Source: a virus. Taken from it: DNA of 64,000 nucleotides. The notes beneath the pieces were generated by a model. The model made no database searches. It saw nothing but the letters and a program-made list of their open reading frames with translations, and was not told the DNA's origin. This document shows, in pieces, positions 6,267 to 51,946 of this stretch (its first letter is position 1; every line of letters starts with the position of its first letter). Where the stretch lies: IMG/VR virus record IMGVR_UViG_3300045988_115217. One strand, written 5' to 3'. The position numbers and the translations under genes were made by a program.

Positions 6267-6318
6267 ATTTCTAATAATTTAAAACTAACTTAAAACCATT
6301 ATCTAATAATACCTTTGC

Positions 6319-21000: not shown

Positions 21001-23858
21001 GCGCAAATTCAGCAGGAAAAGCCATGATGGCAACAATAAAAGCGTACAATCATAATTCAGAGTTTGATTACAAAAGAGGGCTTTTTACAGGAAAAGAAAT
21101 AAATGATTATGTTGCAAAGATGGTAGCAACAACAAGACTGGAGAATAAATCAAAGGTTAGAGGTGAGTCGCTTGCAATCGGCAGCTTTAACGGCATACCT
21201 GACTCTAAAGGCGAAAATAAATTAAAGCAGTTACAGGAACAGCAAAGAAAATTTAGAGAACAAGAAGCAGAGCAAGAAGTAAAAGACCTTGCAAATACCG
21301 AAAAGGTGAAATGGGATTTATATGTCGCAGAAAAGGAAGCAGGAATCGCACGCATGGAGAGCGCAACAGAGAAAGAAGTGGCTCAACACAAGTTAGATTA
21401 CGAAAAACAAAAGCACGCAATCGAAGAAGAGGCGAAGAACCTGCTGCAAACGAATATCGCAGCCGCAAAACAAAAATACGAGAAGAACCCCGACAACAAG
21501 AAAAAGGAGGGTTTTTATGCAAGTGGACTGGATAAGCAAGTCTCTTTAACAAGCGACCAAAAGGCACTCATACAAGCGAAATACGATACACTGAACGCAC
21601 AAGAAAAAGCATACGACCTGCAACAGTTAAAAGCAAAAACACAAAGCCTTTATGATTACTTGAAGGAATACGGAACTTTCAAGGAGCAACAACTTGCAAT
21701 CGCAAAAGAATACGACGAGAAGATAAGAGCCGCAGAATCGCAGGGCGACACATATAAAGTAAAGTCTTTGCAAGCTGAGAAGCAAAAGCAAATTGGCGAT
21801 ACGAAAGCAAAAGAGATAGAAAGCAGAATTGACTACACTAAGGTGTTTGGAGATTTTGGTGTTATTCTGAGAGAGCAGATGGACGATATTTTGAAAAACA
21901 TGAAGGCTTTTTCAAAAACGGACACTTTCAAGGCAAAGCCTATCAATGAGCAAAAGGATTTTCTTTCCCGTATGAATGAGTTATCCAATCAGTACGGCAC
22001 AAGCAAGTGGAAAGATATTAATTTCTCACAACTTGGCAAGCTGATTAATGACTATAATCAGAAGTTAAAGAAGAGAAACGAAGCAGAGGAAAAACTCAAT
22101 GTATCAAGTAAGAATTTGGCAGAAGCACAGGAAGCCTATGAAAATGCGATGAAGAGCGGAAACGATATGCAAAAGCTTGATGCAAAGGGAAAACTCGGAA
22201 ATGCGCAGATAGAGAATGACAACAACAGAAAAGCCTTGGCAGATGCTGATGCCAACCTCGTAGGCGCACAAAGCAACGTAACAGACTCAGCGCAGAAACT
22301 TAGCGGTACTTTAAATTCGCTTGATGCGCTTTTAAACAATATGAAAAGCGGTTCTATTTCTAACGTATGGAACTCTTTCGTGGATTTTGATAAAAAAGTG
22401 AATGGTGGTAAGGCAACACAAGCAGTTACCGACACGGTAGGAAAGGTACTTGGTAAAGCATTTGCAGGCAAATCTGACTTAATATCTCAGATTATCGGAG
22501 CAGTTCTTACTTTGCTTGATACAATCGCAGAGCAAGGAATCGGTGGTATTGTTGGTGGGTTGATAGATAGCGTTTTGGGAGCTATAAATGGTTTGCTTGA
22601 TAATTTATTGAGCGGCAAATTTATGGAGCAAATCGGAGAATCACTCATTAACGGTATTGGTGGAATTATTGATAATGTTATTGGAAAGCTGGGAAGTGTT
22701 CTGTCATTTGGTGCTTTATCCTCGAAAGGTCCGAGCGCATGGTTTGAAAACTCAAACGCAGAAAAGGTAGAGGAAGCAATCAACAACCTTTCAGACAGAA
22801 ATAAGAGTTTGCAACAATCAATAGATGACTTAAACGACACGATGAAGAATAGCAGTGGCGCGAAGTCTGTTGAAGCGTACAAAGAAGCTTACAAGTTACA
22901 GGAAGAGCAAAATGAGAACTACAAAAAGATAGCACAAGAACAGGCTGGTTATCATGGCGCACACGGTTCTTGGAATAAGTATTGGGGCGGTTTTTCGAGC
23001 GAAGAAATAAGTCGAATAAAGGAGATTACTGGTAGAAATGATTTTAGCGGTAACCTTTGGGACTTATCACCCGAAGAAATGAAGAAACTTCGTGGAGGTG
23101 CGATTGATATTTGGGAACGTATCAAAAACACAGGTAAGGGCGGCTACGGTAGTAGATTAACAGATAAACTGGATGATTATATCGACCAAGCCGATAAGTT
23201 GCAAGAACTCACAGACCAAATAAATGAAAGTTTGACACAGGTTTCTTTTTCATCAATGAAAGATGATTTCGTCTCTAATCTGATGGATATGGAAAAGAAT
23301 GCCGAAGATTTTGCAAACGACTTTAGTGAAATGATGCAAAAGTCCGTCTTGCGCTATGATTTGGAGAACCTCCTTAATACTGACTTAAAAAAGTTGTACG
23401 AAAAATGGGGAGCAAAGATGCAAGAGGGTAATTTATCAAAAGATGATATTGATAACCTCAAAAAAGAGTATGACGATTTAGTAAAGAAGGGTATCGAACA
23501 ACGTGATTATTGGGCAAAGATTACTGGCTATACTGGCGAAAGCTCTCAGTCTCAACAAACGGCAACGGGCAAGGGTATTGAGGCTATCACCGCAGACCAA
23601 GCGAGCAGCCTTATCGGTATCGGCTATGCTGTTCAATCTGCTATCGAGGTGGGTAATGAGACAAGAAAGCAAATATCTGTTGATATTTCTTCCTTGCGTA
23701 TCTTCGCAGAACAGACAGCAAACAATATCTCAGAAATGAGAGATATTCAGTATCAAGGGTTGGAACAACTGGAGGCGATAAATAAGAATACTGCACCAAT
23801 TATTCTTATTCGTGAAGACATCGCAAGTATGTATAAATTAATGAAGGAAAATTATTAA
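18027..23858 (+). CDS. tape measure protein (1943 aa)
   Basis: Very long coiled-coil, A/K/E/Q-rich ORF directly after the chaperone pair. Gly-rich hydrophobic segment near residues 1490-1560. Confidence 0.85.
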   Translation: MAEDILGISAHFDANDMLQTFDTLTKRLDKLGIDTTNLQNKLNGAWNEITTSTNLNSEKTQKAFKVIADAMATYQKQMENTPQAIKQVNEEITKAMSSIESLKSRISKTQTGTAEWNDLNKTLEGHEKTLGRLTSTYDNLQSTFSETQQMVSTLNSAFDLSNAGRSISNVATGVNAGAHAAAAAAIGTESAAHGENTTKIGEETQKVQENTAAVQQAAEASKQRVSNSDAEAEAIKRVTERLQEGKVSEDEYLRTKEAAEKYLDQLSQERIELYEKQQRAYERYQDAFNEGIGADDATKAAANAKAHTYISAYNNLGGQVKDADAQIRAIQESLTSLNSAYEKLNQTKQQQAQATSQTQQQEKEQTDKEADAIKAKTEEIKRLQSEYAKLSEQRPNFWGLGTDIKEQKFPFETLIEWNKQTGEARQKIYEAEAELEKMKIAAADVKNETADMWAGMTKEDIAGVIKENVEQLKVLKSEYQDITKVYGSNSDEAKKNKQQQEEITKEILEGKDRLKEMGVSYEDVTKQAKNAAKATKDIGDEASKADDKAKGIFDKLKSFASKGLNPENILSLVFSPKGATMAGITAVAAGLKNLSQINEQLAESMIPLKAYVDGGTLEELREQFVALEYDSSHSAEEMAAGATRWVKYFEGLRGNADAIADVTKSSNDFATVLGKTSNEAASYQLKIAGAYHQTALQAKENSTIIINATKKSTTTYDEMAQALAQTANRAQNAGVSFKELAAATSYGTSTFGSASEAASAYVMMMTRLSAQSKNEYNPSVVGATKALQNLAKSHEMNALLTSLLGKRQASLSKVFVQGAANIKQMQQGLDDETSAAKTLAGAESKIEEQEKRLANAKRALAHEINVNLTPAYANFLEDCSSVIKTIGNWGTTIKNSLKSTLQWINSVDNAIKDSTIYKLFGTSTAELKKTSKGGLRLNIDKILSGKDENSFWDNHFNGFTGNLTLKEYNDKRRKKIQEDLKKIYNQNLKKYGANSAGKAMMATIKAYNHNSEFDYKRGLFTGKEINDYVAKMVATTRLENKSKVRGESLAIGSFNGIPDSKGENKLKQLQEQQRKFREQEAEQEVKDLANTEKVKWDLYVAEKEAGIARMESATEKEVAQHKLDYEKQKHAIEEEAKNLLQTNIAAAKQKYEKNPDNKKKEGFYASGLDKQVSLTSDQKALIQAKYDTLNAQEKAYDLQQLKAKTQSLYDYLKEYGTFKEQQLAIAKEYDEKIRAAESQGDTYKVKSLQAEKQKQIGDTKAKEIESRIDYTKVFGDFGVILREQMDDILKNMKAFSKTDTFKAKPINEQKDFLSRMNELSNQYGTSKWKDINFSQLGKLINDYNQKLKKRNEAEEKLNVSSKNLAEAQEAYENAMKSGNDMQKLDAKGKLGNAQIENDNNRKALADADANLVGAQSNVTDSAQKLSGTLNSLDALLNNMKSGSISNVWNSFVDFDKKVNGGKATQAVTDTVGKVLGKAFAGKSDLISQIIGAVLTLLDTIAEQGIGGIVGGLIDSVLGAINGLLDNLLSGKFMEQIGESLINGIGGIIDNVIGKLGSVLSFGALSSKGPSAWFENSNAEKVEEAINNLSDRNKSLQQSIDDLNDTMKNSSGAKSVEAYKEAYKLQEEQNENYKKIAQEQAGYHGAHGSWNKYWGGFSSEEISRIKEITGRNDFSGNLWDLSPEEMKKLRGGAIDIWERIKNTGKGGYGSRLTDKLDDYIDQADKLQELTDQINESLTQVSFSSMKDDFVSNLMDMEKNAEDFANDFSEMMQKSVLRYDLENLLNTDLKKLYEKWGAKMQEGNLSKDDIDNLKKEYDDLVKKGIEQRDYWAKITGYTGESSQSQQTATGKGIEAITADQASSLIGIGYAVQSAIEVGNETRKQISVDISSLRIFAEQTANNISEMRDIQYQGLEQLEAINKNTAPIILIREDIASMYKLMKENY

Positions 23859-23861
23859 AGC

Positions 23862-24308
23862 ATGAAGAATCAGGCATTTATAAAAATGGTTGGCGAGGCT
23901 GATACAGCCTACGCTGACCTTGATACTTTCGGAGTAACGCTTATTAAAGGATGGAGAGAGGCATTATTAACTCCGACATCTGTTAAAAGCTATGTAACGA
24001 ATGATAGCAGATTGGAACATGGAGAAAGCATTATTGCTACGAAAAAGTATGCAAAGAAAGCAAAGCGTGATGTAAGTATATCTTTCTTCTTGGAAGGTTC
24101 TTCGGAAGAGGATTATCTCGCAAAATACGAAACATTCCTTGACACAATTGCATATTCGGGGCAATTTTGTCTAAAAGTTCCCTGTTTAAAGAGGGTCTTT
24201 AAACTTGTTTATTCACAATGCTCACAATTTGGCGATTATGGATTAAAAAAAGGTAAATTTGTCCTTAAATTGACAGAGTCTAATCCAAATGATAGAGAAA
24301 AGTTATGA
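23862..24308 (+). CDS. putative distal tail protein
   Basis: Immediately downstream of the tape measure. Assigned by synteny only. Confidence 0.35.
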   Translation: MKNQAFIKMVGEADTAYADLDTFGVTLIKGWREALLTPTSVKSYVTNDSRLEHGESIIATKKYAKKAKRDVSISFFLEGSSEEDYLAKYETFLDTIAYSGQFCLKVPCLKRVFKLVYSQCSQFGDYGLKKGKFVLKLTESNPNDREKL

Positions 24309-27300
24309 TTAATATCTATGATGTGAACGGTAAAGTGCTTATGCAAGCAGAGATAACCAGCTCGGCTATTAGAGTGGAAGAATTATCTAAATCAGATTAT
24401 ATCTCCCTCTCATGGAATAGTGCTGAAAAGGTTATCTTGCCTGCTGGAGCATACATTGTACATAAATACAAGATTGATAAAGTAAGAGAAGTTACCCGTC
24501 AGTTTCTTCTCTTGGAATCTTACGAGCCTACACAGAGCGACGAAATGTCTTGGAAATATACGCCAGAGTTTCAGCACCAGAAGATGGTTCTTTCTAAAAA
24601 GCCTTTCTTTATTCGCACAAGAAACTCAAAGAATGAAGTTATAAAGCAATATGACTTCGATTTCTTCGGAACAATGGTTACGATAGCCGATAGGCTCAAA
24701 GATTTTTTGAATAATGAGCTTAAATTCGGTAACGCAGGATGGGTAATCAATTACGACATAACTAATACGAATGCTATTAATGTATCCTTTAGCGATAATG
24801 ATTTTATGTCAGCGCTTACGGCTATCACAAATGCTATCGGAGATAATTGTGAATGGCATATTGATTACGATAACGAAACTATACATATCGGTAATGTGCT
24901 TCGTGATGATTTACCTATCGTTACATTAAAGGTCGGAGAAAATGTAGGTATTCCTTCTATTACTAATAGCAAGGAGGATTACTATAACGCTTTTGCTGTG
25001 TTTGGCGGCACTCGCAATATTACACAAGTTAACGATAAGGGGGAAAATATTTCTTCTTCGGATATAAAATTGCAACTATCTAAAGGTAGTGGAACAACAG
25101 AAATTGACGGAAAGAAGCTTTCTTATTCTATTGACGAGTTCTCTACTATCGATATGAGACAGAATAAGAATGAGCAACTTTTTATTAAGATACTCAATTT
25201 TGCTCAGATATACCCTTCGCTTAATACTTATGTGTATAATGTGCGAGGGAGGGAAAAATATGTGTTACAAGATGGAAATAAAATACCTCTTACGTATAAT
25301 GCTGACGGGTCAGTAAAGACATATAAAACGTTTACTGTATGGTATGTTCGTATGGCTTATCCAACAACCGAAAAGATAGCAGACAAGAAGCTTGTTAATA
25401 CAACTGTTGACAATGGTGTTACTCATTATTGGTACGACTTTGAGGTAACCGATGATTTGCTTATTAATGGCAAGAATATCGGATGCTCCTTTGAGGCGAA
25501 TTTTAATGAAGGAGCATTATCTACTCCTCTTGCAGGTCGTGGAACTAATGGTGATTATGTAGGCTTTGAGCTTACATATCACAAAGAAGCATCATCTACT
25601 CATACGACAGACGATGTTGATAGCTCTAATTTTGCAGTTCTGGCTGGTGATTTTGAGATTATCTATCAGGAGGATAATGACCTTATCATACCTACGAATG
25701 CAAAAGATATGATAATTCCGAAAGGCGAAAGTCTGCCATCTTACAAGTGTAATATTACTGTGCTTTACAATATCGCAATGACAGAGAGTATTTATACAGA
25801 AGATGCTCAAAAAAGGCTTTTAGATGCTGCAATGAAGGAAATAAAAAGGTTGCTTTCCGACTTGAATAACTATTCAGTTAAGTCTTATCCGCAAGTATTT
25901 GAAGCAAAGAATCCTTGCTTACAGATTGGTCAGAAGGTTGTGTATGATGACGGAAACGGCTATCAGCTTAATACTCGTGCTCAAAAGATTACTACGAATA
26001 TCGATTTTGAATTTGTGCAAGAAATCACGGTAGGAAATGAGGTTATCAAAGGTAATACGGCACAGCTTAAAGAAGATGTAAAGGAGATAATTGCATCAGG
26101 TGGCTCTGGTTCAGGGGGCGGTGGAAATTATACAACCTCGCAATTAAAGAATCTTATCGGTAAATATGGTACTGGCTATTTTGTTTCAAAGCTTTTTGAT
26201 GACACCGCAAATGGCAAGATAACCTTTATTAAAGGTCTTGTTGCCAAAGCTCTTGCAGATTTGGCGATGGGAGCGACGTTCGGCAACAGCGCTAAGATTA
26301 CGGAGCTTGGCGAGGCGGTATTTAGCGCTATCAAGTCTCTCGATTACGATAATGCGGCTGAACAAGGCTTCTCTGTCGAAAAGGAGAAGAACGGCAAGTA
26401 TCATGCGTTTTTCACCAACCTCACAATTTGGGGTAAGGCGATATTCCACGAATTAGAGATACGCAAGCTGTCTTATTCGGGGGGCAACATCTATTTATCT
26501 GGAGCAGGAAGTAAGCTTGTCAGAGTTGTGCCTGTCAAGAAATTGGTATCTGATGGTGGTGTGACAACTTGGGTGAAAACGACTGAGGATGATGTGGAAT
26601 GTGTTGGTTGGAAATGCTACCTCTTAGCTGACAACGGAACTACTGCTACAATGAATTACTGGCAGGAGGGCGACCAAGTGCGCTGTCAGACTATTGGAGA
26701 GATTGCGGCTGGAGGAACATATAGTGATGTAAGTAATAAGAGCTATTGGCGTACTATCCCTGATGGTGGTGTATCTACACAAAATGAGAAGATATACGGC
26801 ACGAAGCTGGAAACTTACCTTGATGAGGATGGCAACGAGCAGACGAAAGAAGTACAGGTGGAATTGTACGATGGACAGGCGTTTGCTTGGATTGTGATAG
26901 GTAAGCATTGTGGTGACATTGATGGTTACGACGATGAGTTTAGTGTGGGTTACAATGGCTCTAACCCTGCACCTTTGGAGACGAGAGACATTCCTTCGGC
27001 TGGCGATACTATTGTGCTTGACGGTAACAGACATCGTAATGAACACGGTGAGTATGACAAGACAGACAGACAGAACGTGATTATCTTAGAGACAACTGGC
27101 GAATATGCTCCTCGTATCGCTTGTTATGCTAATATCTCTGAGTATAAGCATACTATCACTAAAAGCGTGAATGGTAGTGATAAAGAGGTATCTCTGTCGG
27201 TATTTGAGACTTCACCAAAAGGTGGAACGAAAATCAACTCATCACGCTTTGAATGGATTTCGGATGATGGCAGTACTATCAACATCATCAACTATCGTGG

Positions 27301-30300
27301 TGACTGGGAAGAAAACAATACCTATCATAAGAACGACCAAGTAAATTACAATAACGCCGTATGGGTGTGTGTTGCTAATTCAGGGGTTGATGTCGCTGAC
27401 AAGCCTTCCGAGGGTTCATCTAACTGGAAAAAAGTCCTTTCTGGTGGCAAAGGCGAGAAAGGTGATGATGCAGTTAGCTATTCCGTGAGCCTTATGAAGG
27501 AATTGAGAACAATCGCAGGTCATAGCAATCAATCCGCTGTAACTGTTAGTTTCCGTAAGCAGGAAGGCAGTAAGAGTACCGTTTCTGGAAACATTGCGAC
27601 TTTTGGTGATTCGGCTTCTGTAAAATGCTATATTGATGGTGAGCGTAGCGATAATATGACAGATTGGATAAATAGCGGAAATGATTACTTCGGCTATTTG
27701 AATTATGAGGATGCTTGGACTGGAAAGTCTGTTATTACTGTCGTTATGTATATCGGTGATAATATCGTTGCTTCTGCCAACTTCTCTCTTGGTCAGAGTG
27801 GTGAGGGTGTCGTAATGGCGTACAAAAATGCTACGTCTCGCCCTTCAAAACCAACTGTTGAAGACTTGTCCCAATTATCTGACGGATGGTCTCGCACACC
27901 TCAGAAAGGTGGGTCTTATCTCAAGGTGGATAATATCAGCTACGGAAGCTTTGATAATGGCGCCAGTTCGTTTGTTGATTCTACATCTAAAAGCTGGACT
28001 GACGTGACAGAAGGTGGTAATTCGTGGAAGAAGTCTCCTTCTGGGCTGTCTGATAACTACGGATGGGCAATAATGAAAGTATCATTTACTACGAATGTAG
28101 ATAATTCGGACGTTAAAGTTACCATCAAGGCTTATTCCGAAGGTAACTATGACTTCGTTCAAGTTCATGCACTTGATACGGAGATAACAGGTTCAAGCAG
28201 CCTTAGGAAGACGGGTGTAGCAGATATATCAGGTAACGGAATAGAAACTTCATATTCTTACCACGTCACTACGACAGGACAGCATTTTTTCTATGTCTCC
28301 TATTGTAAGGACGTCAGCGGTAATAGCAACGGAGACTACGGCTTATTCCGCTTTGACCTATCCGACAATCTTGTCACCTTACCATCAACGGTGTGGATGA
28401 GCCAAGCCACTTTGAAAGACGGAAAGGCTGTACTTCCTTGGTCAGAACCTGTGAAGATAACAGGTGAAGATGCCTACAGAGTCGTGGTTTCTCCATCGGT
28501 GCTCATCTTCGACACTGACGACTACGGAAAAGTTGCTGAGTCATCCCTTGGTGACAAGAAGACTGCGACGATACGAGTGTATCAAGGCGACAAGGATGTC
28601 TCTAAGCAGTTCTCAAAGTATGACAGACTTCCAAGCAACTATTATAATTGCAACGGTAGTCTGAAGGACTTGAATACGTCTCCGTTAGAGATACAGGTGA
28701 CTGAAATAGAAACACAGGTTGTCACTGATACAGAGGGAAACGAAAGTACAATATCCAAGACTAACGGTTTTTTGGAGTTTATTCTCACGAATGCTTCTGC
28801 AACCGTCACGGCTCATGTGGACGTGCAGGTCAACGTTGCCAAGTTCGCTGGTCAGATGGTCAACACCAACAAGCGATTCTCCAACACCTTAACGGAGGTC
28901 GGCAACAAGGTGGATAACAAGATGGATAGCTTTGACCTCAACGAGTTTAAGGCTGAAATTACGCAGACAGCAAGGGAAATCTCACTCTCGGTGAGCGAAA
29001 AGGCTATCGGCAGGAGAAACCTACTTATAGGTAGTGCGGCGAGAAGACAGGGCGAAGGATGGACGTTCATGAGTGGTGATTACTATAACAATCTTCCTTG
29101 TGAATCCATAGAGATAAACAGCGGACACGAGGGCGTGAATGCAATACATTGCCGAACCAAGCAGACGGGAACTAATTCATATTACATGTGCGGTTTCCGA
29201 TGGGTAGGCACGTCTTCTTCACAAGGCAACATCAAGCTAAAGAAAGGCAAGAGCTACACTTTGTCCTTCTGGGCGAAGGCGTACAACTCTGGCTATGTCA
29301 AATTTATATCGGAACTGATATGGCAAGGGAGCGCAACCGACAATTCCCGACCTGCTGGTTATACTGGTCCTAAAGGATTCTTAACGACGCAGCAAGCGAC
29401 GAAAAGCAACACTTGGACGCAGTTTAAGGTAAACATCGAGGTTCCTTCCTCCGCATCCTATGAGTATGTAGAGGTCAACATCTTTGCGAGAGCAACAAAC
29501 TACACCTTGCAGGATGCCTACATCTGCAAGCCTATGCTCGAAGAAGGTGATTATAATGGCTGGACGCTATCGGAACAGGATTACGACTATGTGGGAGGAA
29601 ACTTACTCGATAATACGAGGACGCTGACTGTGGGCGGAAATCTTAACGACGTAAGCGAAAGCACCATTATCTCGCAAGGATATGGGTACGATAGTGCCGT
29701 AGCCCATGCGGACAACAGCAGCGGCTCGTCTTACAAGGAGATATTGAGATGGGGAACCACGTCTGGCGGCAATGTGTCATTCCAGAAAGGAAAAGACTAT
29801 CTCTTGTCGTTCTTGGCAAATGGCAGCGGTAGGATGACCTGTTATCTCTATTGTAGTGCGAACAACACATCCAGCATCTACTCGGAGAACAACCAAGGGT
29901 ATGTGACGAACAACGCCGCCGACGGAGCATCGAATTTTACCCTATCATCGGGGTGGAAACGATACTGGGTGCATTTCCGTGTATTGACGGATTCTCCACT
30001 GCCTACTGATATATTAATGAGAGCAGTAATCGGCACAAACGTCTATGTAGCTCAACCCAAGCTGGAGGAGGGTGCGACCATGACGGAGTACACCGAGCGC
30101 AAAAGTGAGCTTGTGGATAAGGCGAGTCTGAAGGCAGCGGGTATTGTTGTTGACTCTGAATCTGTCACGCTTTACGGCAATCAGGTACACATCAAGAAGA
30201 ACAAGACTGATGCAAACGATACCGTGCTTATCGACAATAATACTGGTACTATATCGGCAGGGCTGATAAAAGCCGATGAAGTCGTGGCGAGAGGTATTAA

Positions 30301-31159
30301 AGCTCAGAATTTGGAGGCGACAAGTCTCAAAGTAACAGGTAATAGTCAACTTGGAATCTTCGAGATACGCACAGCTAAGAAAGATGATAGAGACCAATAC
30401 ACTATCGGTGGTGATGCTATTCAATACAGTGGTGGCTACATGTTCCCGGATGGTAAAACGGAAGCATTCGACGCGGGTAGCTTCTTGATGTATAAGCCAA
30501 TGTTCGTTAGGCAAGGTAGTCCTGATAATTCTGCATATATGCGACTTGGGTATCAATTCACGGAATGGGATGACTGTAATATTTCTGGTGGAAACAAGAA
30601 TTATTTCTTTGTCGGTGCGGCAGCGAGATACGTATGTTCGGGTGATACGGGCTCGTGTAGCAGAACCCTCCTGCCAGTTGACTTGAAATACTCTTTATCT
30701 TATTCAGAACTCAAGCCAGCCGCTTACATTTATTCAGTCAAAACCTTGCAGGATGACCCTGCTTTCGCCATCAAGGTTGTTAAACCAGAGGGTAGCAGTG
30801 GAGAGCGCACGGCAATACAGACTAATGCGGCTATACGAGGAGTGTTTGCTCCGAACGCAACGGACATTTATAAGGACCGGCAAATACCAAACGGCATCGG
30901 AGTAGTTTATTGCTCAAATAATAGTGATATGACGTTAACTCTTCCGGTCAATCCTGTTGATGGACAGACACTGATAATCATACAGGGTTCTAATGGCAGG
31001 GTATATATCATTCCTCCTTCTAATGACGTTAAGATATATTGTGGCGGTTACACAAGAGACAGAAACAATAAATTCTTCTCGGGAATGACGGGTCAGTTTA
31101 ATATCTTTGTTTATGCTAGTGGCGCATGGCAGTTACAATGGATGAATTATAAACCATGA
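24305..31159 (+). CDS. giant tail/baseplate host-interaction protein (2284 aa)
   Basis: Located after the TMP/Dit genes. Has a GGSGSGGGG linker, a GGKGEKGDD stretch and repeated NLL...GW carbohydrate-binding-like segments. Confidence 0.55.
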   Translation: MINIYDVNGKVLMQAEITSSAIRVEELSKSDYISLSWNSAEKVILPAGAYIVHKYKIDKVREVTRQFLLLESYEPTQSDEMSWKYTPEFQHQKMVLSKKPFFIRTRNSKNEVIKQYDFDFFGTMVTIADRLKDFLNNELKFGNAGWVINYDITNTNAINVSFSDNDFMSALTAITNAIGDNCEWHIDYDNETIHIGNVLRDDLPIVTLKVGENVGIPSITNSKEDYYNAFAVFGGTRNITQVNDKGENISSSDIKLQLSKGSGTTEIDGKKLSYSIDEFSTIDMRQNKNEQLFIKILNFAQIYPSLNTYVYNVRGREKYVLQDGNKIPLTYNADGSVKTYKTFTVWYVRMAYPTTEKIADKKLVNTTVDNGVTHYWYDFEVTDDLLINGKNIGCSFEANFNEGALSTPLAGRGTNGDYVGFELTYHKEASSTHTTDDVDSSNFAVLAGDFEIIYQEDNDLIIPTNAKDMIIPKGESLPSYKCNITVLYNIAMTESIYTEDAQKRLLDAAMKEIKRLLSDLNNYSVKSYPQVFEAKNPCLQIGQKVVYDDGNGYQLNTRAQKITTNIDFEFVQEITVGNEVIKGNTAQLKEDVKEIIASGGSGSGGGGNYTTSQLKNLIGKYGTGYFVSKLFDDTANGKITFIKGLVAKALADLAMGATFGNSAKITELGEAVFSAIKSLDYDNAAEQGFSVEKEKNGKYHAFFTNLTIWGKAIFHELEIRKLSYSGGNIYLSGAGSKLVRVVPVKKLVSDGGVTTWVKTTEDDVECVGWKCYLLADNGTTATMNYWQEGDQVRCQTIGEIAAGGTYSDVSNKSYWRTIPDGGVSTQNEKIYGTKLETYLDEDGNEQTKEVQVELYDGQAFAWIVIGKHCGDIDGYDDEFSVGYNGSNPAPLETRDIPSAGDTIVLDGNRHRNEHGEYDKTDRQNVIILETTGEYAPRIACYANISEYKHTITKSVNGSDKEVSLSVFETSPKGGTKINSSRFEWISDDGSTINIINYRGDWEENNTYHKNDQVNYNNAVWVCVANSGVDVADKPSEGSSNWKKVLSGGKGEKGDDAVSYSVSLMKELRTIAGHSNQSAVTVSFRKQEGSKSTVSGNIATFGDSASVKCYIDGERSDNMTDWINSGNDYFGYLNYEDAWTGKSVITVVMYIGDNIVASANFSLGQSGEGVVMAYKNATSRPSKPTVEDLSQLSDGWSRTPQKGGSYLKVDNISYGSFDNGASSFVDSTSKSWTDVTEGGNSWKKSPSGLSDNYGWAIMKVSFTTNVDNSDVKVTIKAYSEGNYDFVQVHALDTEITGSSSLRKTGVADISGNGIETSYSYHVTTTGQHFFYVSYCKDVSGNSNGDYGLFRFDLSDNLVTLPSTVWMSQATLKDGKAVLPWSEPVKITGEDAYRVVVSPSVLIFDTDDYGKVAESSLGDKKTATIRVYQGDKDVSKQFSKYDRLPSNYYNCNGSLKDLNTSPLEIQVTEIETQVVTDTEGNESTISKTNGFLEFILTNASATVTAHVDVQVNVAKFAGQMVNTNKRFSNTLTEVGNKVDNKMDSFDLNEFKAEITQTAREISLSVSEKAIGRRNLLIGSAARRQGEGWTFMSGDYYNNLPCESIEINSGHEGVNAIHCRTKQTGTNSYYMCGFRWVGTSSSQGNIKLKKGKSYTLSFWAKAYNSGYVKFISELIWQGSATDNSRPAGYTGPKGFLTTQQATKSNTWTQFKVNIEVPSSASYEYVEVNIFARATNYTLQDAYICKPMLEEGDYNGWTLSEQDYDYVGGNLLDNTRTLTVGGNLNDVSESTIISQGYGYDSAVAHADNSSGSSYKEILRWGTTSGGNVSFQKGKDYLLSFLANGSGRMTCYLYCSANNTSSIYSENNQGYVTNNAADGASNFTLSSGWKRYWVHFRVLTDSPLPTDILMRAVIGTNVYVAQPKLEEGATMTEYTERKSELVDKASLKAAGIVVDSESVTLYGNQVHIKKNKTDANDTVLIDNNTGTISAGLIKADEVVARGIKAQNLEATSLKVTGNSQLGIFEIRTAKKDDRDQYTIGGDAIQYSGGYMFPDGKTEAFDAGSFLMYKPMFVRQGSPDNSAYMRLGYQFTEWDDCNISGGNKNYFFVGAAARYVCSGDTGSCSRTLLPVDLKYSLSYSELKPAAYIYSVKTLQDDPAFAIKVVKPEGSSGERTAIQTNAAIRGVFAPNATDIYKDRQIPNGIGVVYCSNNSDMTLTLPVNPVDGQTLIIIQGSNGRVYIIPPSNDVKIYCGGYTRDRNNKFFSGMTGQFNIFVYASGAWQLQWMNYKP

Positions 31160-31181: not shown

Positions 31182-33980
31182 ATGAAAAAAATAGTAAAAG
31201 GTAACGACTTCACACTGAAGATACCAGTGATGAAGATGGTAGAGGGGCGACCACAGACTTTTCCTCTGCCAGCCTGTACAGATGTGGTGGTACAGGTTTG
31301 TAATCAATTCAGACGCATCCCTCTTGCGTTTGAAATTGACGTAAAGGAGGACAATGTTATCCTTGCGAGAGTAGAGGGTGACAAGATGAGCCTTGGCACT
31401 TATGCCATCGAGGTAAGGGGTAAGATATTCGGCAATGACTGGCGAAGCAGCGAATACCCTCAGTTTTCCATCGTAGCCAAGAATGCCGATGCCGATACCG
31501 AGTTTGTTGAGACTGACGAGGGCGACAACAGCGTGGAGATGGATACCGCTATGGTTATCCTCCCTCCTTCCGTGGAGTTGAGTGACCTCATTAATAAGGC
31601 TAACGAGGCTTTGAAAAACAACAAGGAAACAAACGATACCCTCAATATTAACGAGGAAGCGAGAAAAGAAGCAGAGACGCAACGAGTATCTGCCGAGTCC
31701 GAGCGAGTATCTGCCGAACAGACGAGAGTATCTGCTGAGGATGCTCGCATGAAGGCAGAGGTCAGTCGTGTAAGTGCAGAATCCGACCGTGCAAGAGCGG
31801 AAGATGCACGCACTAAAATCGAGATTGAGCGACAGGCAAATGAACTTACCCGAAAGGATAACGAGACGAAGCGTGTCAATGCTGAAACATTAAGGAACAA
31901 TGCCGAGAAGTTGCGTGTCTTGCAAGAGAATGAGCGCAAGGGTAACGAGGACGTTCGTAAGTCAGATGAGGATGCACGTATCAAGGCTGAAAGCGCACGT
32001 AGCAAGGCTGAGACCAAGAGAGAGGAAGATTTCTCTGCATCCAAGGAAGCCGCTGACAACGCAACCGAAAAGGCTTTATCTACTTATTCCCACCCTCCTT
32101 ATGCTGATAGCGATGGTTTCTATTACAAGTGGAATCCTGACACGCAGAGTTACGACAAGACGGATGTGAACTTGAAGGCGCAGCCTAGCAAACCAGCCTT
32201 TGTCTTTAAGTCGGTTGAAGAAATGGAGACTACGGACATAAATAACTTCGACCTGTATGATTATGTTATCATCAATACCGACGATACAGAGGATGAGGAC
32301 AATGCGAAGCTGTACCTCATAGACAAGAACGAGGATGGTACAAAATATTACCATTACCTTGTTGATATGAGCGGTTTCCGTGGATTTGCTGGCAAGACAC
32401 CTCAAATCTCCATCGGAACGATTACCACCCTACTTCCTAGCGAGAAGGCTAGTGTAGCCATGACCAGCGACGGTATGGATGAGCAAGGAAACCCCAAATA
32501 CGTCATTAACTTCGCTATTCCGCAAGGACGGAAAGGCGATAAGGGTGATTCATTTTCTTACGCTGACTTCACGGCAGAGCAAATCAAGGAGCTACAAAAA
32601 CCTGCTACTGATGCTATTGCAACACTTGGTCAGACTAAGGTGGATTGTGAGAATGCTACAAAGGCAGCAAACGATGCTGCTTCTGACGCTACCGTAGCTA
32701 AGACCAAGGCAGAGAACGCTGCTTCTGGGGCAGAGAAGTGTAACGTCATCCTTGAAGGCTCTACCGTCAAGGTGACTGACAGAAACGGAGAAACCAAGTC
32801 TGTAGATGTTATTAATACGAATGAGGAAGTGACCGTCACCATCGCCTCTTCCGTGGAATCCATCAAGGTAGCTGGCATTAAGATTAATGTATTCTTGAAT
32901 AACGGCAAGACCCCCCAGACCTATACAACAGATACAGAGGGTAAGGCGACCTTCACTATCGACAGAGGTAACTATTATCAGGTGACGTTTCCTGAGTATG
33001 GCAATGCGCAGCCTATCGCTCCTCAAGGCTATACAGCAGTATTGGGTAGCCGTAATATCAATGTGGAGTATCTGCCATACGATGAGGATAGTATGGAGAA
33101 GGTGATTATCACGGCTACTAAATACGATGATAACGTGGGGACGGCATGGGAAGGTATTCCTGTTATCGTGACTGTTGATAGAAAGGCTACCACCTATCAG
33201 ACGGATGCAAAAGGTCAGGTAACGGTATTCGTACCATATAAGAAGGAATATACTGTAAGAATTGATAATCAGGATGGCTATAACGTTAGCTTTAACAAAA
33301 ATTCAAGAACTAATACAGCGAATGTTCCCCAGAGACTTATCGACTACAGATTCTATCAGTTTAAGGCGGGTATTTTTGTAGTAGATGCAAACAAAAACGA
33401 ATATTACATCGAGGACTGGGTGGCAGCAGGTAAGAGCTCTGATGATGCGGTAGCTATCAAAGTGGCGGATGCCTCATTATCTATCAATCATGGCACTTTC
33501 TGCATTCGTACAAGTGACATTAAGAACGTGTCGCAGTTGGTCAGCAAACAATGGTGTACACAGAACTTACAGTTCGATTCTATCGCCCTGAATGGTAATA
33601 ATGTAAAAGATGCGAATTACTACAACGGAGAATCTTCATCATACCTTATCAGACAGGAGGCTCAGGAGCGAAGTTTATCTGTGCCTGCTTTTGATTATGC
33701 GTATGAACAGATATTCACAATCGGTGGTGAAGAACTTCATGGTTTCATCATGTCGGTAGGTCAGGAATACGTACATGTAGCTAATATCGGTATCATCAAG
33801 CAGGTGCTGGAGACCCTGTATGGCGAGGAAGTAGCTACTAATTATTACGACTTTGTGATGAAGAGATACAGATGGACTTCTACGCAGGACAGCGCTACGT
33901 ACGCTTGGTTCTTCAGTAGTAGTGCAAACTTCAACCTCAAGTGGCTCAGTTTCGTGGTCCTGCCGGTTTACGCTTGTTAA
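31182..33980 (+). CDS. tail fibre-like DGR target protein (932 aa) with a C-terminal variable region
   Basis: Coiled-coil AE..R repeats, two CarboxypepD_reg-like beta domains, and a C-terminus ...WTSTQDSATYAWFFSSSANFNLKWLSFVVLPVYAC encoded by the VR. Confidence 0.8.
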   Translation: MKKIVKGNDFTLKIPVMKMVEGRPQTFPLPACTDVVVQVCNQFRRIPLAFEIDVKEDNVILARVEGDKMSLGTYAIEVRGKIFGNDWRSSEYPQFSIVAKNADADTEFVETDEGDNSVEMDTAMVILPPSVELSDLINKANEALKNNKETNDTLNINEEARKEAETQRVSAESERVSAEQTRVSAEDARMKAEVSRVSAESDRARAEDARTKIEIERQANELTRKDNETKRVNAETLRNNAEKLRVLQENERKGNEDVRKSDEDARIKAESARSKAETKREEDFSASKEAADNATEKALSTYSHPPYADSDGFYYKWNPDTQSYDKTDVNLKAQPSKPAFVFKSVEEMETTDINNFDLYDYVIINTDDTEDEDNAKLYLIDKNEDGTKYYHYLVDMSGFRGFAGKTPQISIGTITTLLPSEKASVAMTSDGMDEQGNPKYVINFAIPQGRKGDKGDSFSYADFTAEQIKELQKPATDAIATLGQTKVDCENATKAANDAASDATVAKTKAENAASGAEKCNVILEGSTVKVTDRNGETKSVDVINTNEEVTVTIASSVESIKVAGIKINVFLNNGKTPQTYTTDTEGKATFTIDRGNYYQVTFPEYGNAQPIAPQGYTAVLGSRNINVEYLPYDEDSMEKVIITATKYDDNVGTAWEGIPVIVTVDRKATTYQTDAKGQVTVFVPYKKEYTVRIDNQDGYNVSFNKNSRTNTANVPQRLIDYRFYQFKAGIFVVDANKNEYYIEDWVAAGKSSDDAVAIKVADASLSINHGTFCIRTSDIKNVSQLVSKQWCTQNLQFDSIALNGNNVKDANYYNGESSSYLIRQEAQERSLSVPAFDYAYEQIFTIGGEELHGFIMSVGQEYVHVANIGIIKQVLETLYGEEVATNYYDFVMKRYRWTSTQDSATYAWFFSSSANFNLKWLSFVVLPVYAC
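33881..33976 (+). repeat. DGR variable region (VR)
   Basis: Ungapped 96-nt alignment to 34565-34660. There are 15 mismatches, all opposite TR adenines. Confidence 0.85.
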
Positions 33981-34091
33981 TCTCTTTATCTCTTCAAAAT
34001 CTCTTCCTCTCTCCATGCAAGCAGCGAGCAAGCGGCGAGCAATGAGCAGGGAGGGATATAAGAGCAATTTTTAATTTCATTCCCTTAAAAA

Positions 34092-34700
34092 ATGGCATTT
34101 GCAGAGGATTTGTACATATATAAAGATACGCTACTCTTGTGCAAGATATTACTCAGGTATAGCAATAGCGTGAGTAGAACCGTCAGGTTTACAACCTACA
34201 ATGAAGCGGTCGTCAAGTCTTGTACAGCTCTTGACTTGGTTAGGAGAATTAACGAAAGTTGGGAGAATAGAGAGGAGCGTATGCACGATTATATTCTGCT
34301 TATGTCGGAAGTCAAGTCAAGAATCAGCCTCCTCACGGATGCCGAGTTCTTAAACAAGAAACAGGCAACCAACCTTAATATGATGTCAGACAAGGTACTG
34401 AAGGAGGTGTATGGCTGGCGGAAGTCTGAGCGGAAGCGCAAAGGCGAGAATTGCAGAGTCAACGACAATGCAAGAGTGTCGTCACTGAATGTGACAAGGG
34501 GTACAATCACGCAACTCACTTATGTGAGAAGTGAACAGACTGGAAAACAGAGAATGTACCGAGATACGCAGAACAGCGCTACGAACGCTTGGAACTACAG
34601 TAGTAGTGCAAACAACAACAACAAGTGGAACAGTAACGTGGTCCTGCCGGTTTACGATTATCCAACAGTGGCGAATGCCTCTGTATTTGCTATTTTTTAA
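34092..34700 (+). CDS. avd: Avd-like accessory variability determinant; ORF reads on through the TR
   Basis: The N-terminal ~120 aa are helical and end in a basic WRKSERKRKGE, like bAvd. There is no stop until 34700, so the TR is inside this frame. Confidence 0.6.
   Translation: MAFAEDLYIYKDTLLLCKILLRYSNSVSRTVRFTTYNEAVVKSCTALDLVRRINESWENREERMHDYILLMSEVKSRISLLTDAEFLNKKQATNLNMMSDKVLKEVYGWRKSERKRKGENCRVNDNARVSSLNVTRGTITQLTYVRSEQTGKQRMYRDTQNSATNAWNYSSSANNNNKWNSNVVLPVYDYPTVANASVFAIF
34565..34660 (+). repeat. DGR template repeat (TR)
   Basis: A-rich with AAC codons. The 3' block GTGGTCCTGCCGGTTTACG is identical to the VR. Confidence 0.85.
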
Positions 34701-34705
34701 GGGAT

Positions 34706-35872
34706 ATGAAATTTGAGAAAGAGTATGTTACGATAGAAGAGGTGTATGCCGCCTATTATGACTGCTGTAAGCATAAAGGTTCGACACCGGGCTGTATCGA
34801 ATACCAGATGAATTATATTGCGAATAATTATCAACTGTATGTCGAATTAAATTCGATGTCATACGAGATAAGTAAAAGTAAGGCATTCTGTGTGACGAGA
34901 CCAAAGCTTCGGGAGGTGTTTTGCGCAGACTTCCGTGACCGCATCATTCACCATCTGCTTGCTATCAAGTTCACGGATATACTCGAAGGCGAAATGACAG
35001 ATAAGGCGTATGCCTGCCGTAAGGGTAAGGGTACTGATTACGGTATCGCTGATGTCAAGAAGCAAATAAAGCGAGTGAGCGATAACTATACTAAGGAAGC
35101 ATGGATATTGAGAGGTGATTTACAGGGCTTCTTCATGAGCATCAATCGCGCGCTCCTTTATAGCCTCCTTGAGAAAGTTATCAGAAAAAAGTATCATGGA
35201 AGTGATATGGAATGGTGGCTGTGGTTATGGAAGAAAGTTGTCTTGCATGACCCGACAAAAAACTGTGTCCGAGTAGGCGATTTGAGTTTGTGGGATAAGC
35301 TTCCTGCTAACAAGTCGCTCTTTACATGCGGTGAGGGCAAGGGACTCCCTATCGGCAACCTACCGTCACAACTTCTTGCCAATCTCTTGCTATCTCAATT
35401 CGATAAACTGATGATAGAGCGAGTGGGCAAAGATGGTGGATATGGCAGATATGTAGATGATTTCCTGGTTATCAGTAGGGATGAAAAGCTACTTCTGAAT
35501 ATTCTGCAAGAGGCAAGGAGCTATCTGTTGGAAGAGCTTGGTCTTACGTTGCATCCTCATAAGGTTAGCCTTCAGAGGGCAGCAAGCGGAGTAAGGTTTA
35601 CAGGCGCATTAATTCGCCCAGGCAGGATGCTTCCAAACTTGCGAACGATAGAACATCTGTATGACGTGATTGATAGGTTTGGGATAGAATCTGACCCGAA
35701 AAGCGAAGTCTTACAGAGGTATGTGAGTCGTATCAATAGTCTGATGGGTGTACTTGTGCATTACAACACCTATAATATCAGGCGTAAGACATGGGCGATG
35801 ATGCCCTATAAGAACAGAGTTTTCTGTGTCAATATGAAGAAAATTAGAATAATGAATAAATATAAAACGTAA
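34706..35872 (+). CDS. DGR reverse transcriptase
   Basis: GRYVDDF catalytic box, a PIGNLPSQLLANLLL (DGR-type [ILV]GxxxSQ) box, and adjacency to the TR. Confidence 0.9.
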   Translation: MKFEKEYVTIEEVYAAYYDCCKHKGSTPGCIEYQMNYIANNYQLYVELNSMSYEISKSKAFCVTRPKLREVFCADFRDRIIHHLLAIKFTDILEGEMTDKAYACRKGKGTDYGIADVKKQIKRVSDNYTKEAWILRGDLQGFFMSINRALLYSLLEKVIRKKYHGSDMEWWLWLWKKVVLHDPTKNCVRVGDLSLWDKLPANKSLFTCGEGKGLPIGNLPSQLLANLLLSQFDKLMIERVGKDGGYGRYVDDFLVISRDEKLLLNILQEARSYLLEELGLTLHPHKVSLQRAASGVRFTGALIRPGRMLPNLRTIEHLYDVIDRFGIESDPKSEVLQRYVSRINSLMGVLVHYNTYNIRRKTWAMMPYKNRVFCVNMKKIRIMNKYKT

Positions 35873-35878
35873 AAGATT

Positions 35879-36469
35879 ATGGAGAAAATTAATTTTATCA
35901 AAGCCTTTATCCCTAAAGGCGATTTTAATGAAAAGTATGAGCACGGAGGAATGATGGTTCGTCATCTTGCTGCTGTGCTTGACGAGAAGATGGGAGCGTA
36001 CGAATGCTACGAGTGTACCGTGCCTATCGGTGAGTACGATGAAAACGGGGTACAGAAGGCATTTACTGAGTTTTCGGCTAAGATGGATGCCTTAAAACTT
36101 AAACAGGCAAAGGTTGACAAGATAGCCGAGATAACAGCCTACGACACATCGGACAAGGTGAACGGCTTTGTGTTGAATGGGTTACTGGTGTGGCTCGACA
36201 AGGCGACACGTGTAGGATTGATGAACTCAACTACCATTGCTAAGGCAGCAGGCCAAGAAACGACAACTCTGTGGCTTGGAGGACTGAAACTGGTGGTGGA
36301 TTGTGATAAGGCTATTCAGTTACTCTCTGCGCTTGAGATGTATGCCCTGGAATGCTTCAATGTGACGGCAAGTCATAAGGCAGCAGTAAACGAACTGACG
36401 ACCATCGAAGAGGTGGAAGCCTACGACTATAAGGCTGGCTATCCGAAGATGCTTGAGATGAGTGTGTAA
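35879..36469 (+). CDS. hypothetical protein, possibly DUF4376-like fibre accessory
   Basis: Positioned after the fibre/DGR genes. The family call is from memory only. Confidence 0.35.
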   Translation: MEKINFIKAFIPKGDFNEKYEHGGMMVRHLAAVLDEKMGAYECYECTVPIGEYDENGVQKAFTEFSAKMDALKLKQAKVDKIAEITAYDTSDKVNGFVLNGLLVWLDKATRVGLMNSTTIAKAAGQETTTLWLGGLKLVVDCDKAIQLLSALEMYALECFNVTASHKAAVNELTTIEEVEAYDYKAGYPKMLEMSV

Positions 36470-50514: not shown

Positions 50515-50755
50515 AACGTGCAAATTTCGTGCAAAGCCACTTTTAAGAAATCGCTAACTATCTGATATTAAACAAGATATGTTTGCTTATATAGATTTTG
50601 TTGGCGTATTATAGAAATATTATATATATTTCAAGGAATACCTATTTTTAAAGGCTATATATGCCATTAAATAGGTGTTTTAAGTATTGTTTGATTTTTA
50701 TAATCTAACGAAAAAATGCTTTACGTTTCAAATAACGTGCAAATTTCGTGCAAAG
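50515..50755 (+). repeat. 22-bp perfect direct repeat pair (candidate attP arm or operator sites)
   Basis: AACGTGCAAATTTCGTGCAAAG occurs at 50515-50536 and 50734-50755. Each copy contains CGTGCAAA twice. Confidence 0.6.
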
Positions 50756-50770
50756 ATAGGAGATACAATA

Positions 50771-51946
50771 ATGATAAAGGTTTCAATAAAACTCGACAAA
50801 AGAAGAAGGCTTAACAATGGGAAATACCCATTAAAGTTTAAGGTTGCCCGAAAAAATAGCGCAATATACATTGCTACTGGCTACGAGCTTAAAGAAGAAG
50901 ATTGGGATGCGAAGAACGAGAAAATTAAAAATCTCCCCGACAAAAGACTCCTTAATATTAAATTAGGGAAACGCTTATCTGAGATTAATGAAAAGGTTAT
51001 TGATTTGCAGGCAGAGGGTAAATTGCGTTATTTTACGAATAAAAAATTATCCTTATACCTCTCTAACGAAGAAGATAAGAAAGAATACGAAAGCCATCTT
51101 TTTAAAACTCAGATGAAGGATTTTCTATCACAGAAAGAAGCAAAAAATACAATCTATATTTACTTGGGAACAGAAAACAAAATTAAAAAATTCTGTGATT
51201 ATGATACGCTAAGAATAGAAGATATAGATATTGAGTGGATAGATAATTTCTGTAACTTTTTAAAAAAAGATAATACAAAGAATACGATTGCAGCACGATT
51301 AAGAAATATTCGTGCTGTTATCAATTTCGCAAGAAAGAGAGGATTGATAAAAGATTATGTATTTAGTCTATATTCAATAAAGATGGAAGAAACACAAAAA
51401 CGCTCTTTGACTGTTGAACATCTAAGAATATTGCATGATGCAAAGCTGCCGTCAATACGTTCTAAACATCGTGACATATTCTTTCTTATTTTTTATCTTA
51501 TGGGTATTAATATCAAAGACCTCTCAGAATTAAAAAAAATTGAGGATGGAAGAATAATCTATCGCCGCTCTAAAACAGGAACGCTCTATAATATTAAGGT
51601 AGAACCAGAAGCAATGGAGATTATTGAACGATACAGAGGTACAGAACATTTAATAAAGCAGTTCGATAAAAATGTATCATATCTAAGTTTTATTCAATCA
51701 ATTAATCATAGTCTTAAGGAAATCTGCAAAAATATAGGAATACCCGAAGTGACGACATATTGGGCAAGACATACCTTTGCGACTATTGCCTACGAGATAG
51801 GAATCAGCATGGACGTTATCGCTGACTGTCTCGGTCATAAGAGTGCGCACAGGATAACCTCTATATATGTACGCAAAGACCAAAATCTTATTGATGAAGC
51901 TAATCGGAAGGTTATTGATTATGTTCTATATAATAAGAAGGGGTAG
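50771..51946 (+). CDS. int: tyrosine recombinase/integrase
   Basis: Bacteroidota-type N-terminal arm-binding segment (MIKVSIKLDKRRR...). C-terminal ARHTFAT...LGH...IYV catalytic pattern. ATG 50771 is preceded by ATAGGAGATAC. Confidence 0.9.
   Translation: MIKVSIKLDKRRRLNNGKYPLKFKVARKNSAIYIATGYELKEEDWDAKNEKIKNLPDKRLLNIKLGKRLSEINEKVIDLQAEGKLRYFTNKKLSLYLSNEEDKKEYESHLFKTQMKDFLSQKEAKNTIYIYLGTENKIKKFCDYDTLRIEDIDIEWIDNFCNFLKKDNTKNTIAARLRNIRAVINFARKRGLIKDYVFSLYSIKMEETQKRSLTVEHLRILHDAKLPSIRSKHRDIFFLIFYLMGINIKDLSELKKIEDGRIIYRRSKTGTLYNIKVEPEAMEIIERYRGTEHLIKQFDKNVSYLSFIQSINHSLKEICKNIGIPEVTTYWARHTFATIAYEIGISMDVIADCLGHKSAHRITSIYVRKDQNLIDEANRKVIDYVLYNKKG

Follow-up and report, generated by a model that had tools for sequence, protein, structure and literature searches.

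A diversity-generating retroelement, complete and probably still functional, among the tail genes of a temperate gut phage

The IMG/VR virus record IMGVR_UViG_3300045988_115217 carries a reverse transcriptase (RT) gene and a pair of similar repeats close to the end of a gene for a tail-fibre-like protein, which raises the question of whether this locus is a working diversity-generating retroelement (DGR) and what it diversifies. We analyzed one strand of a 64,000-nucleotide (nt) stretch of this record, hereafter called the window, to which all coordinates refer. An initial annotation, made from the letters alone, had proposed a complete DGR in the order target gene, avd, template repeat (TR) and RT gene. 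The map of open reading frames (ORFs) agreed with this order and with the three ORFs described, namely a target of 932 amino acids (aa), an ORF of 202 aa at 34092-34700 and an RT of 388 aa with the motifs PIGNLPSQ and GRYVDDF. All parts of a DGR are present in the window, and judged from its sequence the element is complete and probably still functional. We consider it very likely that this is an intact DGR in the tail module of a temperate gut phage, which probably infects Bacteroidales. The features of the locus are listed below; VR denotes the variable repeat and IMH the site for initiation of mutagenic homing.

31182..33980, plus strand: DGR target gene, encoding a tail-fibre-like protein of 932 aa (coiled coil in the middle, prealbumin-like repeats, variable domain at the C terminus)
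33333..33977, plus strand: predicted ligand-binding domain, the C-terminal 215 aa of the target, of DUF1566/Lcl_C (C-type-lectin-like) type (AlphaFold model, Foldseek)
33881..33953, plus strand: mutable part of the VR, differing from the TR by 13 substitutions, each at a TR adenine
33954..33976, plus strand: 3' end of the VR, IMH-like, in which 19 nt that match the TR exactly are followed by C at 33973 and G at 33976 (A and A in the TR)
34073..34117, plus strand: 5' arm of a predicted long-range RNA helix (inverted repeat), covering the avd start codon (34092) and the first ~8 codons
34092..34700, plus strand: avd ORF of 202 aa, with the predicted Avd four-helix bundle in residues 1 to ~120 (34092 to ~34451)
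34451..34560, plus strand: predicted structured RNA domain directly 5' of the TR, conserved (RNAalifold, 11 loci)
34565..34660, plus strand: TR of 96 nt with 33 adenines, mostly in AAC codons, and an IMH*-like end at 34638-34660
34668..34713, plus strand: 3' arm of the predicted long-range RNA helix, taking up nearly the whole TR-RT spacer and the RT start codon (34706)
34706..35872, plus strand: DGR RT of 388 aa with IGNLPSQ and YVDD and without maturase or endonuclease domains

The evidence that carries this reading begins with the repeat pair. When re-aligned, the VR at 33881-33976 and the TR at 34565-34660, which lie 684 nt apart, matched without gaps over 96 nt, as had been reported, and the similarity ended abruptly on both sides. 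The 15 mismatches counted initially were all recovered at the same positions, each with an adenine in the TR; with 33 adenines in the 96-nt TR, the hypergeometric probability that all 15 would fall on adenines by chance is 7.9e-9. Only 13 of them reflect mutagenesis, however, because the remaining two, at 34657 (A to C) and 34660 (A to G), recurred in 10 of the 10 loci tabulated by column. These two differences are fixed between TR and VR, a putative discriminator of the IMH*/IMH type, and not a product of mutagenesis. The other 13 lie in the 73-nt part before the shared block, again all on adenines (P = 1.4e-6), and the window VR shows no difference from its own TR at any other base. Eight codons are changed in the mutable part, seven of them AAC (to GAC, TAC, TTC or CTC) and one TAC (to TTC), in agreement with the earlier remark that the mutable adenines sit mostly in AAC codons; the resulting replacements are N to D, Y, F or L and Y to F. 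The VR corresponds in frame to codons 900-932 of the 932-aa target ORF, with the stop codon 2 nt past the repeat.

The 3' end of the repeats had been described as an identical, GC-rich, IMH-like block. The identity holds over 19 nt (GTGGTCCTGCCGGTTTACG), while the GC-richness is only moderate. A 19-nt identical block followed by two fixed TR- or VR-specific bases is compatible with an IMH/IMH* pair. Between clades, the block changes in the TR and the VR together (positions 79, 80, 85 and 90). It occurs exactly twice in the 64-kb window even when three mismatches are allowed (expected 0.02), and the window therefore holds a single VR. A 14-nt inverted repeat that brackets the VR (33859-33872 and 33983-33996) was no better than shuffled sequences and was not conserved, and we attribute it to chance.

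The RT gave clear matches to Pfam RVT_1 (E = 7e-17) and PHROG 1423 (E = 2e-74). Among solved structures, its best match by far was the DGR RT of Bordetella phage BPP-1 (8ub7; E = 1.2e-29, 107 bits), whereas group II intron and retron-type RTs reached only 35 to 37 bits (E = 2e-8 or weaker); a clustering by score with the latter, named at the outset as the outcome that would speak against a DGR, was thus not observed. The best matches among GenBank phages were the DGR RTs of the Bacteroides phages F2, F4 and Bacuni_F1 (40 to 42% identity), and BPP-1 brt was 28% identical. The window motif IGNLPSQ fits the DGR-typical IGxxxSQ, and YVDD is present. By these sequence comparisons the window RT groups with DGR RTs.

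The ORF between target and TR had been called Avd-like. Residues 1-120 matched PHROG 3206, 'Avd protein of DGR' (E = 7e-5), and a model built from 19 homologues folded into a four-helix bundle with a predicted local distance difference test score (pLDDT) of 84.7. Its Foldseek neighbours in the PDB were the S23p/IVS-protein family (2gsc, 2rld) and BPP-1 Avd (4dwl, 8ub7 chains B-E), with target-normalised template modeling (TM) scores of 0.77 to 0.88 and a root mean square deviation (rmsd) of 1.2 to 2.2 Å overall; for the BPP-1 Avd chains these values were 0.77 to 0.83 and about 2 Å. Sequence searches of the PDB with Avd, both single-sequence and profile, gave no match. The fold and the PHROG match thus uphold the call of a four-helix Avd, while the 202-aa ORF is over-extended and contains the TR. 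In the sister clades, Avd is 120 to 133 aa long and ends before the TR, and in the window clade a 1-nt indel in the loop of an RNA hairpin (P2, described below) takes the stop codon out of frame. Past residue ~120, the ORF continues across noncoding RNA and across the TR, which has no stop in the VR frame. A genuine Avd-TR fusion protein is unlikely: relatives stop before the TR, the extension follows from the loop indel, and the region shows RNA-type covariation. Many database entries of 202 to 207 aa inherit the over-long call.

The N-terminal and middle regions of the target gave PHROG matches to virion structural and minor tail proteins. The middle (window 31600-32100, residues about 140-300) is a highly repetitive coiled coil rich in Ala, Glu and Arg (...RVSAE...), and its DNA contains short tandem repeats (for example, 21-nt units at 31671-31712) and long spurious antisense ORFs. 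An AlphaFold model of the last 215 residues (pLDDT 87, predicted TM score 0.84) bore out the expectation of a DUF1566-like C terminus. Its fold matches in BFVD (Foldseek, query-normalised TM 0.66 to 0.70, E = 1e-9 to 2e-8) were a DUF1566 protein of the crAss-like phage cr10_1 and phage tail-fibre proteins, and the best match in a PDB fold search, the C-terminal domain of Legionella Lcl (DUF1566), was not significant (E = 0.27). The VR encodes the C-terminal beta-strands of the tip model (strands E180-214), and the model also includes a three-helix insertion of ~35 residues (H142-177). BLASTP of the tip against the DGR target of Bacteroides phage F2 gave a weak match (E = 3e-4); the F2 target in turn scored just under the 34.9-bit cutoff of Pfam Lcl_C (E = 2.6e-8, 34.6 bits). 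The structural model therefore points to a DUF1566/Lcl_C-type tip with the VR in its C-terminal strands, for which the sequence-level evidence is weak. Hypervariability among 37 target homologues is confined to the last ~30 residues, on an otherwise conserved scaffold. VR length variants also occur among these homologues. In relatives, homologous tip domains are joined to different fibre shafts (673 to 933 aa), which is typical of receptor-binding tips.

Related loci record the process itself. Thirteen IMG/VR loci with an RT 85 to 94% identical to that of the window shared its layout, as did additional contigs (ENA, Logan) from gut metagenomes of humans, including Hadza, and of pigs, and the TR is conserved next to the RT in all relatives. 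A second scan of viral contigs with RT alignment returned the same loci plus one. The initial annotation had suggested looking in relatives for variation confined to adenine sites, and this is what we found: in the 14 loci with an ungapped TR/VR pair (10 from IMG/VR, counted over positions 1-92, and 4 from ENA), 134 of 138 TR-to-VR mismatches lay at adenines. The 10 IMG/VR loci contributed 90 of 94 (A to T, 50; A to G, 32; A to C, 8), and the four more distant ENA loci contributed 14 of 14, 7 of 7, 16 of 16 and 7 of 7. A still more distant DGR, MT836212, had 10 of 10. The two main clades also differ from each other at the nonadenine TR positions 12, 13, 63, 70, 79, 80, 85 and 90, and there each VR has the base of its own TR; these mirrored differences mean that copying from TR to VR took place after the clades had split. 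Loci L001, L003 and L012 have one TR in common and differ in their VRs, as do L032 and L033, which are 1.5% divergent in the flanks and 17.8% in the VR core. The VR thus evolves faster than its flanks, and across the related genomes information flows one way, from TRs that are themselves not strictly invariant to VRs.

The changes in the TRs are not random with respect to base. Among 15 distinct TRs (L001 to L037), 22 of 31 polymorphic sites were at consensus adenines, which make up 34% of the sequence (binomial P = 2e-5), and in L009 and L013 the altered TR positions agree with the VR of the same locus. This suggests that mutagenised sequence occasionally leaks back into the TR, by self-homing or by VR-to-TR conversion, and such leakage fits a discriminator of just two bases. 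In three further loci (L004, 5252-5350; L008, 5252-5350; L010, 5250-5348), the VR is one codon (3 nt) longer than its own TR, within an (AAC)n run; this difference may stem from slippage in reverse transcription or from a deletion in the TR after the last homing.

By analogy with BPP-1, these parts would work together as follows. The avd-TR-RT region would be transcribed, and RT and Avd would copy the 96-nt TR RNA into complementary DNA (cDNA) with misincorporation opposite adenines. The cDNA would then take the place of the homologous VR at the 3' end of the gene for the 932-aa tail fibre, with the shared 3' block and the two TR/VR-specific bases keeping the transfer one-way. About 10 codons, mainly AAC (Asn), within the last ~25 aa and the last beta-strands of the lectin-like tip would be randomised, and receptor binding would be altered. 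Three of these points, namely that a cDNA intermediate forms, that Avd and RT act as a complex and that tropism is affected, we infer from BPP-1 as the paradigm.

The RNA architecture around the TR is supported by covariation and is the only feature that goes beyond the textbook picture of a DGR. Directly 5' of the TR, and overlapping the annotated C-terminal half of the 'Avd' ORF, the conserved domain comprises the helices P1 (34451-34459/34465-34473), P2 (34481-34485/34491-34495), P3 (34500-34505/34555-34560) and P4 (34507-34517/34526-34534), and P3 closes it 4 nt before the TR. Across the 11 loci, 94% of the pair cells hold standard pairs, compared to 22 to 45% with slid partners, and 15 of the 26 pairs show compensatory change; in 500 shuffles, none reached the observed values. 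A second, long-range helix pairs 34073-34117 with 34668-34713 (42 bp; -52.3 kcal/mol versus -18.0 ± 3.6 for shuffles). Its core, which spans avd positions 0 to +15 relative to the ATG, is kept in four sequence versions:

Window clade: avd arm AUGGCAUUUGCAGAGG, spacer arm CCUCUGUAUUUGCUAU
L005 type: avd arm ...ACAGAGA, spacer arm UCUCUGU...
L039 type: avd arm AUGGCAUACACGGAG, spacer arm CUCCGUGUAUGUCA
L032 type: avd arm CAUGCUCUCAGAUGAA, spacer arm UUCAUUGAGAGCAUG

With the register fitted separately for each locus, a caveat to these counts, 168 of 220 cells were paired, compared to 57 to 110 in shifted registers, and both sides had changed at 10 of 22 positions. In tight windows, the duplex z score ranged from -3.6 to -6.6 for six lineage representatives, and G-U pairs outnumbered A-C cells, which points to a sense RNA rather than DNA as the paired molecule. 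The helix was absent from Bacteroides phage F2 and from MT836212 and is lineage-specific rather than a general feature of DGRs. Immediately 3' of the TR, a small hairpin showed weak, G-U-rich pairing without compensatory changes, folding the TR together with the 5' end of the RT as a single sequence gave no significant structure, and an Rfam search around the TR matched no family.

The long-range helix would close avd and the TR into a loop of ~600 nt, covering the avd ATG and abutting or covering the RT ATG. The RNA elements could serve as a 5' scaffold for Avd-RT, as a processing stem that defines the avd-TR RNA, or as a switch that holds back translation of avd and RT while the RNA is used as a template. 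We put forward as a tentative possibility, in which we place rather little confidence, a rearranged template RNA in which scaffold and priming lie 5' of the TR, the spacer is locked in a 16- to 45-bp helix with the avd start, and both start codons are sequestered.

Several observations weigh against the reading of the locus as a complete, probably functional DGR of a Bacteroidales phage. A stem-loop or cruciform of the BPP-1 type was not found 3' of the VR, the fold of 33950-34095 being no better than shuffles (z = -0.03), and such a stem-loop is not universal among DGRs. The pre-TR:spacer duplex of the 'cPRT Stop' type (ACAGAG/CUCUGU) was not consistent among the six representatives (z = +0.4 to -2.8) and showed one-sided changes only, and we did not adopt it. 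Avd matched no Pfam family, including bAvd, and no NCBIfam family above threshold, and the same was true of the target protein; since Avd and the target domain fall below every Pfam threshold, their assignments rest on predicted structures. In searches of GTDB representative genomes with RT peptides and with an adenine-masked TR/VR pattern, the element was not found, and a host could not be named in this way. Some relatives are clearly inactive. In L008, the RT has a premature stop after ~194 codons (about 6001-6585) and the TR and VR mismatch at nonadenine positions, and in L036 and L037 the target, avd and TR are kept while an internal RT deletion joins roughly the first 28 to the last 22 codons (about 4110-4260). 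Finally, four human gut contigs of up to 209 kb (L028 to L031) from different samples are 0.1 to 0.3% divergent and have identical VRs, and so do L032 and L034, from different samples and 0.07% divergent. Near-identical copies with identical VRs mean that homing is rare or strongly selected, and diversification is episodic.

The frozen VRs and the broken RTs, together with TRs that gather changes of their own, mostly at adenine sites, favor the view that the window element is a fossil, a DGR that was active in an ancestor and whose TR, Avd and RT are now decaying passengers beside a frozen VR. We regard this as quite unlikely. The window RT is not truncated and keeps its catalytic motifs, Avd is likewise intact, the TR retains its 33 adenines, and the 19-nt shared block is perfect; decay would have added nonadenine differences to the window VR, as it did in L008, and the RNA helices around the TR are still under purifying or compensatory selection. 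A different doubt concerns the target. Its function is deduced only from its position in the tail module and its fold, a separate tail-fibre-like DUF4376 gene lies just after the RT, and the 2284-aa protein with carbohydrate-binding module (CBM) matches encoded upstream could be the primary receptor-binding or depolymerase protein. According to one proposal in the literature, moreover, DGR-targeted phage C-lectin proteins attach either to receptors on bacteria or to intestinal and immune cells (PMC10743442). The DGR could then be real and diversify a protein other than the receptor-binding one, such as a decoration protein or an adhesin that binds mucus, glycans or the mammalian host, with no switching of tropism. 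This is unlikely in our judgment, given that the tip has its closest structural matches in annotated tail fibres and at the C-terminal ends of long phage proteins, that the rest of the target resembles virion and minor tail proteins, and that homologous tips are found on different shafts.

That there is no DGR at all, and that a retron, group II intron or defence-type RT merely lies beside a diverged direct repeat, is hardly conceivable. NCBIfam did return group II intron, retron and Drt models for the RT, all as weak matches far below their cutoffs, and we discarded these identities. The adenine-only mismatch pattern (P = 8e-9) recurs in every relative, BPP-1 bRT is by far the best structural relative of the RT, Avd is present, and there is neither an intron RNA nor a maturase domain, with no hit in Rfam. 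The relatives of the RT and the adenine pattern effectively refute this explanation already. We therefore retain the reading of an intact, probably functional DGR that acts on the tip of a tail fibre.

The surroundings of the locus are those of a phage genome segment, with capsid, tape-measure, tail, amidase, tyrosine integrase and methylase genes. The tape-measure gene (18027-23858) lies upstream of the target, which is itself placed between the gene for the 2284-aa tail protein (24305-31159) and the DGR accessory genes. The 2284-aa protein matches PHROG 17422, and its matches to CBM_4_9 and CBM_5_12 are weak and both below their cutoffs. Directly after the RT follows the DUF4376/tail-fibre-like gene of 196 aa (35879-36469), in the same position in all relatives and with the amidase also downstream; in L028 to L031, a gene for an HNH/NUMOD4 homing endonuclease has been inserted farther along, ahead of the amidase. 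A single clone with a frozen VR has a wide distribution; its Avd sequence was recorded on 28 contigs. The intergenic region between target and avd (33981-34091) measures 111 nt in the window clade and ~42 nt in the sister clade (L005, 5352-5393). It contains a CT-rich tract followed by a GA-rich tract with a possible, nonsignificant hairpin, and its CT-rich motif CTCTTTATCTCTT is kept even in the distant L032 clade. In the nonstructural arm of the phage, a 354-aa ORF (54187-55251, minus strand) combines DUF7666 with collagen-like triple-helix repeats.

The temperate lifestyle proposed initially is supported by the tyrosine integrase gene at 50687-51946 (Arm-DNA-bind_5, Phage_int_SAM_5, Phage_integrase). 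The nearest isolates for capsid, integrase and RT were Bacteroides phages (24 to 42% identity), and a Bacteroidota host, also part of the initial proposal, is a reasonable inference from these sequences. A nucleotide search with the 4.7-kb locus gave no match among GenBank phages.

With a perfect TR/VR pair, all accessory parts and natural variants that show the process, the window offers a clean case of a DGR, one more in a class whose abundance in gut Bacteroidales phages was known before. The lineage recurs in human and pig gut metagenomes, and its intact, RT-truncated and RT-deleted copies form a natural series for the upkeep and loss of DGRs, while the excess of adenine sites among TR polymorphisms bears on how a TR is protected from its own mutagenesis. 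To our knowledge, the mechanism of cDNA priming and the RNA requirements are known in detail only for BPP-1, and the lineage described here offers covariation-supported RNA elements in another arrangement. If the rearranged template RNA sketched above were real, it would mean a different control of DGR expression, or of template definition and priming; the helix could then be an RNase III-type stem that excises the avd-TR RNA, or a switch that parts the roles of mRNA and template.

DGRs of this kind are already well documented in gut Bacteroidales phages (PMC6199706, PMC8143477, PMC7290462, PMC10743442). The Bacteroides uniformis phages F1, F2 and F4 (Hedzet et al. 2021, PMC8143477; MT806186) have the nearest isolate RT (40 to 42%) and integrase (35%). 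They share the order target-avd-TR-RT-...-amidase-integrase, and their Lcl_C/DUF1566 target is weakly similar to the window tip, including the VR signature W(T/S)ST..SA..AW. In F2, however, the target is a stand-alone protein of 253 aa rather than the tip of a 932-aa fibre. Pfam clearly recognises the F2 Avd as bAvd (E = 5e-36), whereas the window Avd, which matches no Pfam family, aligns to it at an hhalign E value of 0.016; F2 also lacks the avd-start:spacer helix and has no nucleotide similarity to the window genome. The DUF1566-tipped fibres of crAss-like and other gut phages, several of which are DGR targets (PMC7290462, PMC10743442), provide the best fold matches, the gut setting and the same idea of a hypermutable beta-hairpin on a lectin-like tip; they differ in being only 17 to 20% identical and in the ~35-residue three-helix insertion of the window tip. 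Hankyphage (Benler et al. 2018, PMC6199706) is reported to be likewise a temperate Bacteroides phage of the human gut with a DGR on a tail-fibre-type gene. Hankyphage is not among the top RT matches listed and no GenBank phage matched at the nucleotide level, which indicates a different lineage.

The prototype of the class is the BPP-1 DGR (mtd-avd-TR-brt). Both elements have the order target-avd-TR-RT, a tail-fibre gene with the VR at its very 3' end, adenine-specific change, and a shared 3' block followed by bases that differ between TR and VR (IMH/IMH*, putative in the window). The RTs are homologous, the Avd folds superpose, and the target tips belong to the C-type-lectin-like superfamily, with the window tip being of the DUF1566/Lcl_C subtype and not Mtd-like. 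Avd, a basic four-helix bundle, is found in most but not all DGRs. The window TR is shorter (96 versus 134 nt), as is the TR-RT spacer (45 versus about 140 nt), and its 3' block is just moderately GC-rich, with TR and VR differing at two positions after it. In BPP-1, a DNA stem-loop or cruciform just 3' of the VR takes part in target recognition (PMC3240598), whereas no hairpin was found there in the window. The essential RNA of BPP-1 lies mostly in the 140-nt spacer, which pairs with the TR and with the avd segment just 5' of the TR ('cPRT Stop'), and the published survey of other DGRs extended only from 40 nt before the TR to 100 nt after it (bioRxiv 10.1101/2023.10.23.563531). In place of a consistent pre-TR:spacer duplex, the window has two other predicted elements: a structured RNA domain preceding the TR, and a helix in which the spacer pairs with the avd start.

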